Source: a virus (lineage: Duplodnaviria > Heunggongvirae > Uroviricota > Caudoviricetes). From it: a stretch of 64,000 nt of DNA. Every line of letters starts with the position of its first letter. Within the stretch, counting starts at the first letter, position 1. Of this stretch, positions 9,624 through 30,903 are shown in pieces. The notes below the pieces were generated by a model that made no database searches, was not told where the DNA came from, and was given only the letters and a program-made list of their open reading frames with translations. The DNA is taken from IMG/VR virus record IMGVR_UViG_3300031413_000001, one strand, 5' to 3'. The position numbers were made by a program, and so were the translations under genes.

Positions 9624-10012
9624 GCAAATACTTGAGCGGCCGACCCTTTATGGTCATTTCCTACAGCTACGTTCTAGCTGCGGGACAAAAGAGCAACACG
9701 CCAGGCTTTGGCGCCACTGCAGAGTGGGATCCAATCGAGAACATGGTCATCGTTGATCGTGTTACCAACAAGCAGACGCAGAATGCAGAGTTGATCCTCG
9801 ATCTCTTTGAGAGCAAGGTTCTCAAGAGCAGGAACGTGGACAGTGATGAGGAAAAGTCCAAGCTGTTCAACATGTTCGTCTCCAAGTATTTTGAAGACGT
9901 CAAGGCCGCGCTGGTAAAGTGGATTGCCGCCGACAGCGCAAATCTATCCAAGGTTCAGAACTTTGTGGATGCCCACAATGCACGAAAGGTAGAAGAAGAT
10001 GACGGAAATTGA
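9620..10012 (+). CDS. hypothetical protein
   Basis: ATGA-coupled ORF. Confidence 0.65.
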   Translation: MSKYLSGRPFMVISYSYVLAAGQKSNTPGFGATAEWDPIENMVIVDRVTNKQTQNAELILDLFESKVLKSRNVDSDEEKSKLFNMFVSKYFEDVKAALVKWIAADSANLSKVQNFVDAHNARKVEEDDGN

Positions 10013-10310
10013 TCCAGAGACAATGATGAAGGTAGAAGTCCTCAAGATGGAATTGGTTTCCATCTTGTTGGAATTCATGTCGGATATGAATAACGAGGAG
10101 ACTCGTGCCAAAGTCGTAGAAGACTTCACCGACTACCTGGAGGCCAGCGAAGCATACGACTACACGGTTGTCTGCGACGAAAGCAACAATACTCCTGATC
10201 GTGTCAGCGATCTAGAGCTGTGGGTGGATGTTGCTGTGAACTTTGCTGAGGATGAAGATTACATCTACATTCCTCTTCGCCTGAGCCCGAGGTTTGTTGA
10301 TGAAGAGTAA
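9999..10310 (+). CDS. stand-alone tail-sheath C-terminal-like domain protein
   Basis: YDYTVVCDESNNTPDRVSDLELWVDVAV resembles the gp18-type 'DfrVvCDetNNTp..id.nel..di.i' motif. Confidence 0.7.
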   Translation: MTEIDPETMMKVEVLKMELVSILLEFMSDMNNEETRAKVVEDFTDYLEASEAYDYTVVCDESNNTPDRVSDLELWVDVAVNFAEDEDYIYIPLRLSPRFVDEE

Positions 10311-14651: not shown

Positions 14652-15059
14652 TTAGAAAGTGGGCTTCATCGAGGATTCGCTGACTTCCTTGAAGGTGCCC
14701 GGCTCCAGGATGTAATAGGCGTTGTAGCTGGGCTCCTCACAGTCTTTGTGAAAGACCAGCTTGCCGGAGACCATTGCGTCCGAGATTGCCTGGAACATCT
14801 TGTCCCCATAGCAACCCCAGATGGACGTCATCTGCGAGTAGCCCTCGTTCCCACAGCCATCGCCCTCGCGAGCATAGATCGTGAGTTCGCCATTGGGACC
14901 AACCTGCAAGGGTCCCTTCCAGTCCGGCTGGTACTGGCACTCATCGTGGTAGAGCTCACCGATCTCGGTTTCGTCCATCAGCTTGGTGTTGAGCTGATCC
15001 AGATCCTTGATCGCGAGATCATCGACCTGATAGATCTCAAGATTAGTCCACAGTCCCAT
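14652..15059 (-). CDS. hypothetical protein
   Basis: AGGAG RBS, 135 aa. Confidence 0.65.
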   Translation of the reverse strand: MGLWTNLEIYQVDDLAIKDLDQLNTKLMDETEIGELYHDECQYQPDWKGPLQVGPNGELTIYAREGDGCGNEGYSQMTSIWGCYGDKMFQAISDAMVSGKLVFHKDCEEPSYNAYYILEPGTFKEVSESSMKPTF

Positions 15060-15348
15060 CTTCTTCTCCTTTATGAAATCTCAACTTGAACAGCATTGCT
15101 TTGTCGCGGGTCTCAAATTGGAACCCGCGCTTGTCCCCGCCCATGCTGAATGATTGCCAGTGAATCTTGGGCTCACCCACACTTGTTTCCAACCAATCGT
15201 AGGCTTCCTGCGTGATAAAGCGGTGCCTTGCGTGGTGAAGGTATGAGGGAAGATTCTCATCCGTGGGATCAAAAGGATCAAAGAGCTCGTCGGTTTCCTC
15301 TTTCGTCAAATAGACGACGTGGTCTCCATCTATCTCTTTGTACTCCAT
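15043..15348 (-). CDS. FKLxW-motif family protein
   Basis: DWLETSV...FQFETRDKAMLFKLRF. Confidence 0.75.
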   Translation of the reverse strand: MEYKEIDGDHVVYLTKEETDELFDPFDPTDENLPSYLHHARHRFITQEAYDWLETSVGEPKIHWQSFSMGGDKRGFQFETRDKAMLFKLRFHKGEEDGTVD

Positions 15349-19887: not shown

Positions 19888-20280
19888 TTAGATTCTCAGA
19901 CCCCAAACGTGACTCTTAAACTGGCCAGCCAGCTCACGGGTCTCAAACTGCACAAACCAAGCCTTGCCATCCCACAGTCCCTTTTTGTAGCTGGGAGAGT
20001 GTTCGGCGCCTGGAACGGGCACTAGGACGGGAACAACCTCGGGGGCAAAGTGTTCCAGCCAGACACGCTCCGCATACCGTATATCAATCTTACTGAACAG
20101 CATGTTGCCATGCTCCTTCCAATAGTTGATTGATCGCTTGTACTTGGAAGTCCGACGCCTCTTGATTCGCCGTGCCTTGGCACTTACGGGGCCTCCCCGT
20201 CCACTCAAACTTCTAAGAAATGCCCTGCCGGACATTCTCCGTGCCTTCGTACTCTTGGTGCGACTTTTTCTTTTTGCCAT
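19888..20280 (-). CDS. FKLxW-motif family protein with very basic N-terminus
   Basis: VWLEHF...VQFETRELAGQFKSHVW; K/R-rich first 50 aa. Confidence 0.65.
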   Translation of the reverse strand: MAKRKSRTKSTKARRMSGRAFLRSLSGRGGPVSAKARRIKRRRTSKYKRSINYWKEHGNMLFSKIDIRYAERVWLEHFAPEVVPVLVPVPGAEHSPSYKKGLWDGKAWFVQFETRELAGQFKSHVWGLRI

Positions 20281-20757
20281 TTAGCCCCACGCAAGTTTGA
20301 ACATCAGCGCAATGGATTCCTTCTTGAACAAGAAGACCTCACGCTCCCGCTTGTCAATCTCCACAATGCAGACTTGGTACTTAAAGTTCTGCTCACGAAG
20401 CCATGCAAGGATTGTGCGACGATGAGCAGTTCGTAGCTCAAGTGTTTCTTGATCCATACGGGGCAGGACCCATCGCTTTGCAGGAAGGTTGTCCACATTG
20501 GGAGCGCGAGTGACTTTGATCTCCCCGCCCTTTTGATGGAACTTGGGATCGTACTTGCTTTCCCAAGCCTTCCTCTGTGTGTAGTAACTCTGAGGCTTCA
20601 TGACTTCCTCACCTGGCTCAATGAAGTCATACCAAAATGGCATTGGAAACAGGATCTTGGGGTAGATAACATTACTGAAGGGTTGGAATATGGACTGGCT
20701 GATAGTGGTCTTGCCCATCTGCCGGCCAGCAATAATTGGATAGTGTCGTCCAGACAT
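20281..20757 (-). CDS. FKLxW-motif family protein with N-terminal terminase-like Walker A peptide
   Basis: IIAGRQMGKTT at the N-terminus; AWLREQ...FLFKKESIALMFKLAWG. Confidence 0.75.
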   Translation of the reverse strand: MSGRHYPIIAGRQMGKTTISQSIFQPFSNVIYPKILFPMPFWYDFIEPGEEVMKPQSYYTQRKAWESKYDPKFHQKGGEIKVTRAPNVDNLPAKRWVLPRMDQETLELRTAHRRTILAWLREQNFKYQVCIVEIDKREREVFLFKKESIALMFKLAWG

Positions 20758-20859
20758 AGGATCTCGCAAGCTATCGTGTCGATCTTTTCCTGCGATAACT
20801 CAATATAGTACCATGTACTCTGGAGTGCAAGAGTTGAGGGTGGCCGTTAAGCCACCCCC

Positions 20860-23251: not shown

Positions 23252-23441
23252 CTTGTCTCCTCTTCATCGATCTTTCTGATTCCCTCTGAATCATTCTGAT
23301 CCCATATATAATAGCTACTCCGGACAGGGCTTACTTGGTACATGCAGATTGCATGTTTTCGGATAGCCCCTTCCAGCGGGCTGAACCGGAATAGCATGGA
23401 AATCCACATATCTCAATTAAGAACTGCCCAGAGGCGCGCCT

Positions 23442-23918
23442 TCAGTCCTTATCTTCCGCTAAGGACTTAGGCAATCCAAAAGTGGGTGGCGCGGGCTGGG
23501 ATGCGGCGTATTTGGCCCGCATGGTGTAGATGCTGCTATGTGGACCCTGCATGGGCGAAATCCCGAGAATATCCTGAGCAATCACGCGAGGCATCACGCG
23601 TCGAATAATGGGCAAGATAACCTTGCCAAAGACCGTCTTCTCATATGGCATACAGGGAACCCACACGAGCTTGAACCACGTGGCGTGCTTGGCATGCTGA
23701 AAGCTGATCAGGGTATCGTATGGGTACTCATTGAACCCCGGATAGCGTTCCTTGTAGTCGAGGCGCATTAGTGAGCTATCGTTGAGATTTGCCTTTATCA
23801 GAAGAGCCTCGAGCTCTTCCATGCGCTCAGGCATCAGATGGAATTGAAAGCCCAGCCTGAAGTGGCGCCTCTTCATCCGACTTGATTTCCAACGAGGCTT
23901 GCTTGAATTGGTTTTCAC
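23442..23918 (-). CDS. FKLxW-motif family protein fused to a major-capsid (gp23 Gol-region)-like peptide
   Basis: ISFQHAKHATWFKLVW followed by VILPIIRRVMPRVIAQDILGISPMQGP..IYTMRAKY; GGAG before the GTG start. Confidence 0.8.
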   Translation of the reverse strand: MKTNSSKPRWKSSRMKRRHFRLGFQFHLMPERMEELEALLIKANLNDSSLMRLDYKERYPGFNEYPYDTLISFQHAKHATWFKLVWVPCMPYEKTVFGKVILPIIRRVMPRVIAQDILGISPMQGPHSSIYTMRAKYAASQPAPPTFGLPKSLAEDKD

Positions 23919-24507
23919 GTCGTATCTCCGAATCGAGCATCATTACATATTGGGACCAGGAGGAGACCTCCATGTTCTCAACCCACTGGTCATACCAGGC
24001 CAGAGGATCACCAGTGGATTCATAATCCAGCATGATGATCTCCTTGCAGGGATTAAGACTCCGGCCTTTGATCTGGTGCATTGTGGGAAAGATGCCAGGA
24101 GTGGTCTGGCTTATCAGAGGCAGAGTCCACGTTGGAGCGTTGGCCGACATTGCGCCACGCCGTTGGGAGCCGGTCATGACTTTGCCAAAATGACTGTTGA
24201 GGGTGAGCTTTCCCATCCAAGTACGCATCTTTTCTGCGTAGTCTATCTTGGCGTCTTCGTTCCAGCTCAGCTTGAAACGGATGGCATCTTGTTTGCTGGT
24301 AAAGCGAACAATGGTCTCTGGGTTCTCATAGAAGGAATATAGTGGAGGCTTGTGGAGACGCCACTTTCGGCCCTTGACCCCAAACGCTTCCCCCAGGAAG
24401 TCCTGTAGCTCAGTTTCCCGCGTTCGCTCTACGAACAAGGAGATCTGATGACCAAACCAGTTTTCACCACGCTGTTCGGGTGTGCGATCTTTGAATGAAT
24501 ATTCCAT
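23827..24507 (-). CDS. FKLxW-motif family protein with a tail of enzyme-motif-like peptides
   Basis: VRFTSKQDAIRFKLSW followed by KLTLNSHFGK, NPCKEI and MLDYESTG. Confidence 0.75.
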   Translation of the reverse strand: MEYSFKDRTPEQRGENWFGHQISLFVERTRETELQDFLGEAFGVKGRKWRLHKPPLYSFYENPETIVRFTSKQDAIRFKLSWNEDAKIDYAEKMRTWMGKLTLNSHFGKVMTGSQRRGAMSANAPTWTLPLISQTTPGIFPTMHQIKGRSLNPCKEIIMLDYESTGDPLAWYDQWVENMEVSSWSQYVMMLDSEIRRENQFKQASLEIKSDEEAPLQAGLSIPSDA

Positions 24508-24548
24508 GTGGGTTTGTTGCGCTCACCCACATGGAAAGTTCAATATTC

Positions 24549-29701: not shown

Positions 29702-30085
29702 CTATTCCCTCCAGTTAATCTGCTTTTCAACTTCCCCAATCCACTCCAAGATCCTTTCGCGATCGTAGGTTTCCTTGCTCCAGTCCATGGCAGTACGGAT
29801 GCCCTTTAACACACTGAAGGCCTCGCGGTCTTTCATGAGCTCTACGCTTAGGCCAATGCACAAAAGCAGGGTCTCGGCGTGGAGCTCTTCCCATTTACGG
29901 GCTGCAAGATGGATGCTGGCACCAAAGACAGCTTTTGTGGCGATCGTATAGAACCCCTCAACTGTCATAGGGTACCCATGTATAAAGACGAATGTCTTAC
30001 TATCATGCTGGGCGACTACGGGGCGTCCTGATAGTTTGCTGGTGATAGCGTGGCTTCGAACAAACTTCTGCAACTCTTCGCTCAT
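29702..30085 (-). CDS. hypothetical protein
   Basis: ATGA-coupled to the upstream nucleotidyltransferase. Confidence 0.6.
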   Translation of the reverse strand: MSEELQKFVRSHAITSKLSGRPVVAQHDSKTFVFIHGYPMTVEGFYTIATKAVFGASIHLAARKWEELHAETLLLCIGLSVELMKDREAFSVLKGIRTAMDWSKETYDRERILEWIGEVEKQINWRE

Positions 30086-30903
30086 GCTGGCAACTCCAAT
30101 CCCAATTTTGCTGCGGCCTTCTGAAGCGCCTTGCTGTCAAAGACCTTGGTGTCCATGATCTCTTCAACCTTGGCATCATGATCGTAGTTGGCCGTTGGTC
30201 GCTCATTGTCAAAGATTGCATGGGCTCCAACGATATCCAGACCTGACTCCGTGATGGTTGTGAACAACCCGGGTTCAGGCAGGAAGCCGTGGTTGATGTA
30301 CTTTACCATTCGTCCCACGACCGTCAGCTTGCTGACACGTCCCACTTGCGCGAGACGAAGGACACCAGCGTTGATGTCCTCAAGTGCAGTCTGGGTATAG
30401 GCAATCCGCTTTCCATCGGTTGCTACCTGGCAGACCGAAAAGTCAAAGTCGCCAAACAGTTCACCCAAATCCTTGTAGAACTTTCGCTTGATGATCTGCA
30501 CCTTCAAGCCGTTGACCATAAAGGTTCGTGCTTTTCCACTGGAGTGAACCAGTTCATAGCTGGATAGAACCTTGTCAAACTTCAACCAGTCCCCTGCATC
30601 GGTAAAGAAGAGATCAACATCGCCATCATCAATGGCCTTTCCCTGAAGGATGCGACGAACCGCTCCTCCTGCGAGAAAGGGACCAAACTTCAAACTCAGC
30701 GGGGGCATGAGTTCCATGAGTTCTCTGAGCTGCTCCGTTCCCGGACCCTCTTCCATTTCCCTGTACTGATGAGGTGCGGGCGGCATGGTGTAAACCTGCG
30801 GTCCCTCCTCTGCATCAGCAAAGATACTGGGCATAGTAGAGGCAGTCCAGCTGGCTCCTGCGGATCGCGCTTTGATGCGCTGGATGATGTTTGCTGCGTT
30901 CAT
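30082..30903 (-). CDS. CCA/poly(A)-polymerase-head-like nucleotidyltransferase
   Basis: FLAGGAVRR...GDVDLFF...VQII...FDFSVCQ. Confidence 0.75.
   Translation of the reverse strand: MNAANIIQRIKARSAGASWTASTMPSIFADAEEGPQVYTMPPAPHQYREMEEGPGTEQLRELMELMPPLSLKFGPFLAGGAVRRILQGKAIDDGDVDLFFTDAGDWLKFDKVLSSYELVHSSGKARTFMVNGLKVQIIKRKFYKDLGELFGDFDFSVCQVATDGKRIAYTQTALEDINAGVLRLAQVGRVSKLTVVGRMVKYINHGFLPEPGLFTTITESGLDIVGAHAIFDNERPTANYDHDAKVEEIMDTKVFDSKALQKAAAKLGLELPA

Follow-up and report, generated by a model that had tools for sequence, protein, structure and literature searches.

Why would a phage gene carry, behind a small folded domain, a string of short peptides resembling the catalytic-site motifs of unrelated enzymes? 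The question is raised by an open reading frame (ORF) at 23827-24507 on the minus strand of the window, as we call the whole 64,000-nucleotide stretch of DNA analysed. The ORF encodes a protein of 226 aa (P0001), composed of an FKLxW scaffold domain and a motif-bearing tail, and has orthologues in a syntenic locus. Its source is a jumbo phage of the Phosso/Atu_ph07 type (contig of 463,863 bp); the polymerase encoded in the window is 57.5% identical to that of Sinorhizobium phage Phosso and 52% to that of Agrobacterium phage Atu_ph07. Related DNA over the locus was found in two further plant / phyllosphere studies. The original prediction had placed four peptides in one frame after FKLSW, and all four are present, at 24184-24210, 24085-24162, 24016-24054 and 24010-24027 (DYESTG). 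We refer to such pieces as beads.

The ORF has about 35 relatives (the full profile search gave 33 matches, two of them spurious, and another search added five). All 11 relatives whose surroundings were examined occupy one common locus, with a MazG-like gene, another FKLxW gene or a capsid-bead gene as neighbours, and we therefore regard the ORF as a conserved orthologous gene whose tail varies. The FKLxW pattern itself has 14 matches within the window and about 75 credible family members in G002, a relative of 417 kb that is 93% identical. Nearly all of these proteins stop within a few residues of the motif and long C-terminal tails are exceptional; the two long-tailed genes considered here, the ORF and its neighbour, adjoin each other. 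Recognisable beads occur in only a handful of the G002 genes.

As a single sequence, neither the ORF nor its tail found a meaningful match in Pfam, PHROGs, PADLOC, cultured phages (tblastn) or the PDB (phmmer), the ORF having one Pfam match (PRO8NT) below the cut-off, which implies that the bead signal requires a family profile. A named family for the protein was not found in Pfam, PHROG, PADLOC or Atlas, and the screen of the gene against defence systems that had been suggested likewise returned nothing from PADLOC. A literature search, with most subscription journals outside its coverage, yielded no account of an FKLxW tail protein family or of such decoys. The bead-tailed FKLxW protein is a real, selected and apparently undescribed kind of protein.

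According to AlphaFold2, residues 1-85 fold into a small alpha/beta domain, of which residues 1-82 (24262-24507, minus strand) form the FKLxW scaffold in a ferredoxin/ACT-like arrangement (pLDDT about 75-96). Residues 90-108 are predicted as a helix ending in bead 1, residues 111-161 as disordered and residues 184-207 as a second helix. The structure search with the scaffold domain was unspecific and returned unrelated alpha/beta domains (best Z 6.2, rmsd 2.8, 66 residues aligned); ClpS is absent among the listed fold matches, and the only look-alikes are uncharacterised phage proteins. The conserved C-terminal helix W..Y...LD.EI..E (23914-23958, minus strand) has no PDB match and no known source.

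The identity of the beads was tested with family profiles searched blind against 177,635 PDB sequences. Rows for the bead-1 and bead-3 profiles were partly chosen for the motif, and the cleanest test is the unselected profile of 16 tails: it gave five matches at E <=10, all of them alpha subunits of ribonucleotide reductase (RNR), of three kinds. Single PDB E-values for beads are weak (0.02-1.4), and control profiles of the scaffold and of two C-terminal blocks matched no replication enzyme in the PDB.

Bead 1 (24184-24210, minus strand), at the end of the predicted helix 90-108, carries the motif B signature of family-B DNA polymerases (PolB), K-x3-N-S-x-[YF]-G, on a helix; the tyrosine slot is F in the ORF and Y in most relatives. 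The proposed resemblance to motif B is borne out by its conservation in 15 of the 35 tails and by the best PDB match of the profile, motif B of phi29 polymerase (residues 376-395, E 0.026). Three unrelated protein types are interspersed among the matches, which also include an 898-aa DNA polymerase (residues 556-570). Motif C occurs in none of the 35 tails, motif A in only three relatives, and a palm fold with motifs A and C is absent. Searched against the Phosso and G002 proteomes, the bead-1 profile did not have the phages' own PolB in its top four.

Bead 2 (24085-24174, minus strand) is an RNR-alpha mimic, in which a loop-2-like GxxRRGA is fused to an APT..I...TPGIxP substrate-phosphate segment, in a region predicted as disordered (pLDDT <50). 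It had been taken for a capsid-like peptide. All 16 PDB matches of its profile, however, are RNR alpha subunits (best E 0.052, aligned to E. coli 612-637), so that the bead is the RNR segment R-N..PT..TxGIxP. Its BLOSUM62 score against the neighbour's capsid peptide is only 23, its conserved residues are without capsid counterpart, and the Gp23/Gol pattern RR..P..IA.DI.GV.PM is lacking; we have abandoned the capsid label. A second weak alignment sets the GGxRRGA piece against RNR 295-309; such a loop-2 piece, overlooked in the original prediction, is present in 4 of the 35 tails. Between beads 2 and 3 lies a Q-x-K-[GS]-R block resembling SF2 helicases (24061-24075, minus strand), which in relatives is preceded by a PTGSGKT Walker A that the ORF lacks.

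Bead 3 (24016-24054, minus strand), NPCxEI-x-L-x-DYES, mimics the thiyl (finger) loop of RNR, as had been suggested. It occurs in 10 of the 35 tails, and the profile spanning beads 3 and 4 matched only T. maritima NrdJ, a class II RNR, in the PDB (residues 314-331, E 1.4). This match extends through DYE. The simplest reading of the fourth bead, formerly assigned to the DxETTG motif of a DEDDh exonuclease (ExoI), is thus that it closes the RNR loop and is absorbed into bead 3. The TG is confined to one strain lineage (one of the 35 tails, and the 93% relative G002), a family match is lacking, only D-x-E is conserved (D in 100% and E in 94% of 18 rows), and the set of ExoI, ExoII and ExoIII is absent, for which reasons the exonuclease label was dropped. 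DYES might possibly be a DxE exonuclease piece or a piece of PolB motif A, since in a neighbour gene in L098 it leads into SYPSVI.

The tail thus has the RNR signatures N-x-C-x-E (thiyl loop) and PT..TxGIxP. The full 10-stranded barrel of RNR alpha (PF02867) with colinear motifs was not found: Pfam and PHROG matches are lacking, the pieces are out of order and the region is predicted as disordered. The order in RNR is 295-300, 437-441 and 612-637 (E. coli numbering, in which we take the thiyl loop to lie at 437-441), as against 295, 612-637 and 437 in the tail, with the polymerase piece in front. An hhalign comparison of the tail with Phosso RNR gave a probability of 0.7%, and bead profiles searched against the Phosso and G002 proteomes only were weak, with RNR in second place for the whole tail and for bead 2.

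Do the motifs exceed chance, as the original prediction expected? In 200,000 shuffles of the 144-aa tail, with patterns written after the data were seen, the motifs arose at frequencies of 2.7e-4 (PolB motif B), 6e-5 (NPCxEI), 8e-5 (PT..TxGIxP) and 3.5e-4 (DxETG). Among the 35 tails, PolB motif B occurs 15 times (one out of place) against a shuffle mean of 0.006, the RNR loop 10 times against 0.003, TxGIxP 12 times against 0.23 and helicase motif VI 8 times against 0.025. None of these four is found in the scaffold halves of the same 35 proteins, and most unrelated motifs tested in the tails (PolA, ThyA, ligase, DHFR, primase, PolB motif C) were absent. The enrichment over shuffled tails is clear; since the tails share ancestry, the counts indicate conservation and not independent events.

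The beads are also conserved relative to the linkers at the amino-acid level, in line with the second expectation. Conservation of the modal residue reaches 0.61, 0.45 and 0.61 within the beads, compared with 0.36, 0.21 and 0.32 in the linkers beside them. Three divergent pairs give a bead pN of 0.09-0.32 at a pS of 0.42-0.92, while linker pN is 0.36-0.67 and scaffold pN about 0.36, all of these being raw proportions over few codons. The beads vary less than the linkers in amino acids, synonymous sites are saturated, and both AGT and TCC are in use as codons for the serine of bead 1. We conclude from the enrichment together with the conservation that the tail is a selected multi-motif mimic; and selection on the amino acids of peptides that are unable to catalyse suggests that something binds them. 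In bead 1, K, N, S, [YF] and G are kept, and the slot between S and Y is filled by H, Q, N, T or S, which is not polymerase-like. Helix geometry would put K, N and Y/G on one face, as if a surface and not a fold were maintained. A role at the DNA level, as a decoy for homing endonucleases or CRISPR, was considered and rejected, as the beads share one strand and reading frame, their synonymous sites are saturated and repeats do not flank them.

The bead order of close relatives is stable (PolB motif B, loop 2, TxGIxP, Walker A, QxKxR, loop, DxE). Pieces are gained or lost, and the reshuffling that had been anticipated is largely absent. Distant relatives carry other sets, among them helicase motif VI running into the RNR segment RN..T..P (P0027, P0036, P0038), an RGxGKS Walker A and PolB motif A; the Walker A and helicase VI pieces do not figure in the original prediction. 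Against Pfam, the tail of P0012 matched ResIII at E 8.7e-4, below the curated cut-off, over a 54-residue ResIII-like stretch, and the tails of distant relatives matched DNA_pol_B_2 at E 0.095. A BRCT-like reading of the C-terminal block in distant relatives was unsupported by a profile search against the PDB.

Capsid peptides do occur at this locus, on a separate gene. The neighbouring FKLxW gene (23442-23918, minus strand) bears 40 aa copied from the Gol region of gp23 (23505-23624; Pfam Gp23, E 2e-11). The copy is identical to the G002 capsid protein at 22 of 38 positions, and the gene is kept in most orthologous loci; the pattern RR..P..IA.DI.GV.PM is found both in this neighbour and in the orthologue P0023. 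In L096 the Gol peptide sits on the same scaffold in place of the ORF's beads, and in L098 the gene that normally holds Gol bears a Walker A like that of terminases together with a PolB motif A-like piece. Tail-fibre-like genes are inserted directly 3' of the Gol-bead gene in G003 (112557-113788) and L088 (5199-5705). Directly 3' of the same gene in the window (23301-23450, minus strand) lies a structured element of about 130 nt, a candidate ncRNA or cis element, which has four copies in G002, a conserved place in L001, L003, L088, L091, L094 and G003, and no match in Rfam.

Further FKLxW genes contain peptides of other core proteins. The gene at 20281-20769 has an N-terminal peptide (20707-20739, minus strand) like the Walker A of terminases (RQMGKT of the G002 and Phosso enzymes), which is absent in the G003 orthologue. 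The gene at 19888-20280 (minus strand), conserved across the clade, has a basic N-terminus, an FKLxW-like end and an internal peptide (19951-20001) resembling the N-terminal P.YK.G.WDG of UvsW (blastp to Phosso UvsW, E 0.012), which is kept in the orthologues of L094-L098 and G003. The capsid C-terminal peptide YxPYxPL is found on separate scaffolds in G002, G005 and Phosso. A Phosso FKLxW-like gene begins with NPCGEIAL, the start of the RNR loop; in that genome, capsid C-terminal, Gol-like and RNR-loop peptides lie at W01 113923-114303 (-), 182175-182855 (+) and 450403-450795 (+), two of the three small genes being FKLxW-like. A match in SCTP-2 was discarded as a bead gene, being the true capsid gene of SCTP-2. 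When 147 FKLxW proteins were compared by blastp with genome-wide long ORFs, 9 matches had E<0.05 as against 2-4 for shuffles, and the Gol bead alone was clearly significant, which indicates that most beads are below the range of blastp.

What unites the beads is that each copies the least variable peptide of a core protein. At the level of the compared sequences, we show that the pieces are selected, out of native order and exchangeable for other invariant peptides (capsid Gol, terminase) in one locus.

Other small ORFs of these genomes are recorded here as separate observations. A free-standing 103-aa ORF in the window (9999-10310, plus strand) matches part of a 1091-aa, tail-sheath-like Phosso protein (38% over 85 aa, E 4e-11). 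In G003, a 131-aa ORF that is not of the FKLxW kind (14903-15298, plus strand) contains 44 aa of the Walker A region of an AAA ATPase (match to G002 120713-121936, E 7e-6). A nucleotidyltransferase-like gene at 30082-30903 (minus strand), 5.6 kb from the ORF, is 61% identical to an L001 gene annotated as Pfam Gad2 (anti-Gabija), which is weak context in favour of the bait reading considered below.

The expression of the ORF may be regulated. An RNA hairpin at 24496-24542 (minus strand, z -4.85) buries its AUG, which is paired at p>0.9 in 6 of 10 orthologues by stems of differing sequence, and in a seventh except for the first base. RNAalifold found no consensus for the hairpin because the 5' arms misalign, and covariation was accordingly not counted. 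From these folding predictions, translational control by the hairpin is a reasonable supposition. A conserved AATA[TA]TGA box precedes it, in an intergenic gap of 41-42 bp. One RNA run yielded low-depth reads over 23363-23682 only, and gave no sign that the ORF is transcribed.

What, then, might bind the beads? It is possible, though we would stop short of calling it probable, that the ORF encodes a peptide-display bait for host factors that read linear peptides. The folded FKLxW domain carries a mostly disordered tail, whose pieces copy residues that are invariant and touch nucleotides in RNR alpha and in family-B polymerases, with helicase and Walker A pieces added in relatives; the pieces would have originated as short in-frame gene fragments. 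They may persist because a host factor reads such peptides as linear or nascent-chain signs of infection; the bait would engage this factor without activating it productively, and the real enzymes would thereby be shielded, with the start-codon hairpin limiting the timing and amount of the bait. In the source enzymes the bead motifs line buried active sites, so a reader of these motifs would act on nascent or unfolded chains. In favour of the bait are the blind profile searches with their controls, the enrichment and conservation of the beads, their exchange within the locus, their occurrence on separate scaffolds, and the sensing of Gol and of a tail-tip peptide described below. Against it are the weak single E-values, the small number of G002 genes with recognisable beads, an NPC-type loop that is not the one in the RNRs of the clade, and the failure to find an RNR in G002.

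Alternatively, the tail may be a near-neutral collage, in which short gene fragments settle downstream of FKLxW domains, conserved motifs being retained as the sole sites for recombination or conversion between distant phages, only the conserved pieces being recognised by us. We consider this unlikely. The overlap of motifs at shared residues in P0027, P0036 and P0038 is what microhomology joints would produce, conversion from enzyme genes would also yield synonymous-rich differences, and the gene has been replaced or fused in L096. However, bead residues include some that the donors' motifs seldom show, bead order and spacing are inherited vertically among proteins about 35-50% identical, the beads all share one strand and reading frame and lack flanking repeats, and the tail between the beads is likewise under constraint.

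A display directed at competitors, by which beads copying the motifs of other phages or of the host trip immunity against co-infecting phages or act as guarded bait for competitor effectors, is rather unlikely in our view. The loop bead is of the NPC type and differs from the RNR loops of the clade (SNMCVEI in Phosso, SNLCQEI in G005), bead 1 best matches a phi29-type polymerase, and a start codon buried in a hairpin is expected for a risky product. Yet the Gol, terminase, UvsW-VI and PolB motif A beads resemble the clade's own proteins, and tripped immunity would also harm the carrier. The idea that the clade lacks RNR did not hold up, as nrdA is present in G005 and Phosso; searches of the 417-kb G002 found no RNR, but the segment in which G005 keeps nrdA may fall in the part missing from G002. 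The type and position of nrdA vary (295.5-298.2 kb in Phosso, 81.9-83.5 kb in G005) and the slot of Phosso nrdAB is empty in G002, which suggests that RNR is mobile in the clade.

It is improbable that the beads act as bait or as client mimics, by which a host factor is caught or a chaperone occupied, and that the scaffold delivers this target to the phage's ClpAP/DnaJ for destruction. In every long locus examined, clpA-dnaJ flanks the block on one side and infA-nudix-clpP on the other, which speaks for such delivery, but FKLxW genes are spread genome-wide and mostly distant from clp genes.

PolB motifs A and B, RNR loop 2, the finger loop, the PT segment, Walker A and helicase motif VI all line nucleotide sites in their enzymes, and the tail could accordingly be a nucleotide-binding or -sensing module, for instance a sponge for dNTPs, NDPs or a signal. 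We hold this to be quite improbable, given that residues 111-161 are predicted as disordered, that the same slot can hold a capsid peptide, which is no nucleotide binder, and that the tyrosine and the cysteine are often substituted. That the tail is the remnant of an RNR or helicase gene joined to the scaffold, or a product of chance alone, is very improbable in spite of three pieces from one enzyme and the ResIII-like stretch of P0012, considering the scrambled order behind a polymerase piece, the purifying selection across the clade and the shuffle probabilities of 1e-4 each.

Returning to the peptide-display bait, a broader and more doubtful version would have the FKLxW family of the clade serve as a display library of invariant core peptides (polymerase, RNR, helicase, terminase, capsid), driven by an undescribed bacterial immunity that reads linear or nascent-chain peptides. 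If the proteins are baits, phage genomes list the invariant peptides that bacterial immunity reads, including active-site loops of RNR and PolB, for which the literature search found no described sensor; each bead would be a ready probe for sensor pull-down and the bead catalogue a set of sensor epitopes. Even without an immune role, a selected collage that joins catalytic-site peptides of unrelated enzymes represents a mode of gene construction not described so far, and the bead-tailed gene is a first handle on the very large unexplained FKLxW family, with its roughly 75 copies in G002. Bead genes can also mislead annotation, as such genes are called 'Gp23'. Phosso, which is cultured, infects Sinorhizobium meliloti and possesses bead genes, provides a tractable experimental system.

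The source type of the ORF's beads is given by RNR alpha (E. coli NrdA, T. maritima NrdJ) and family-B polymerases (phi29, T4 gp43), from which the ORF differs in having no barrel, palm or other such fold and in holding pieces of 9-26 aa out of order. A functional likeness exists with the Gol/Lit/EF-Tu system of T4, where a short, maximally conserved core-protein peptide suffices to be read by a host defence: the 29-residue Gol peptide of gp23 is read by EF-Tu / Lit (PMC3014915), and the adjacent gene and P0023 carry the Gol region. In T4, however, the trigger lies inside the capsid protein, while here the peptides are on a separate scaffold and the ORF's beads derive from polymerase and RNR. 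The free Gol peptide activates Lit and does not block it (PMC3014915), so a Gol copy could be a trigger, which argues against the bait.

In the HepS system a defence protein likewise binds a linear phage peptide, being activated by the lambda tail-tip J peptide (as reviewed in PMC13434031); the peptide is different and no phage-side copy or decoy is described there. The targets of Avs1-21 include capsid, terminase, polymerase and helicase, classes also represented among the beads, whereas the polymerase sensed is of family A and RNR is not among the listed targets (bioRxiv 10.64898/2026.01.04.697583). STAND/Avs sensors recognise folds through extended interfaces, and the one for polymerase works without the catalytic Asp (same source); because they read folds, sensors of the STAND type are poor candidates for readers of the beads. 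Finally, Ocr, a DNA mimic, and Acb2/Tad, nucleotide sponges, resemble the proposed bait in competitively occupying a host defence site (EVADES, bioRxiv 10.1101/2025.06.06.658234). These proteins imitate DNA, or use folded domains to bind signals, while the peptides considered here form a string of pieces from core enzymes, for which the consulted passages of this source give no counterpart.
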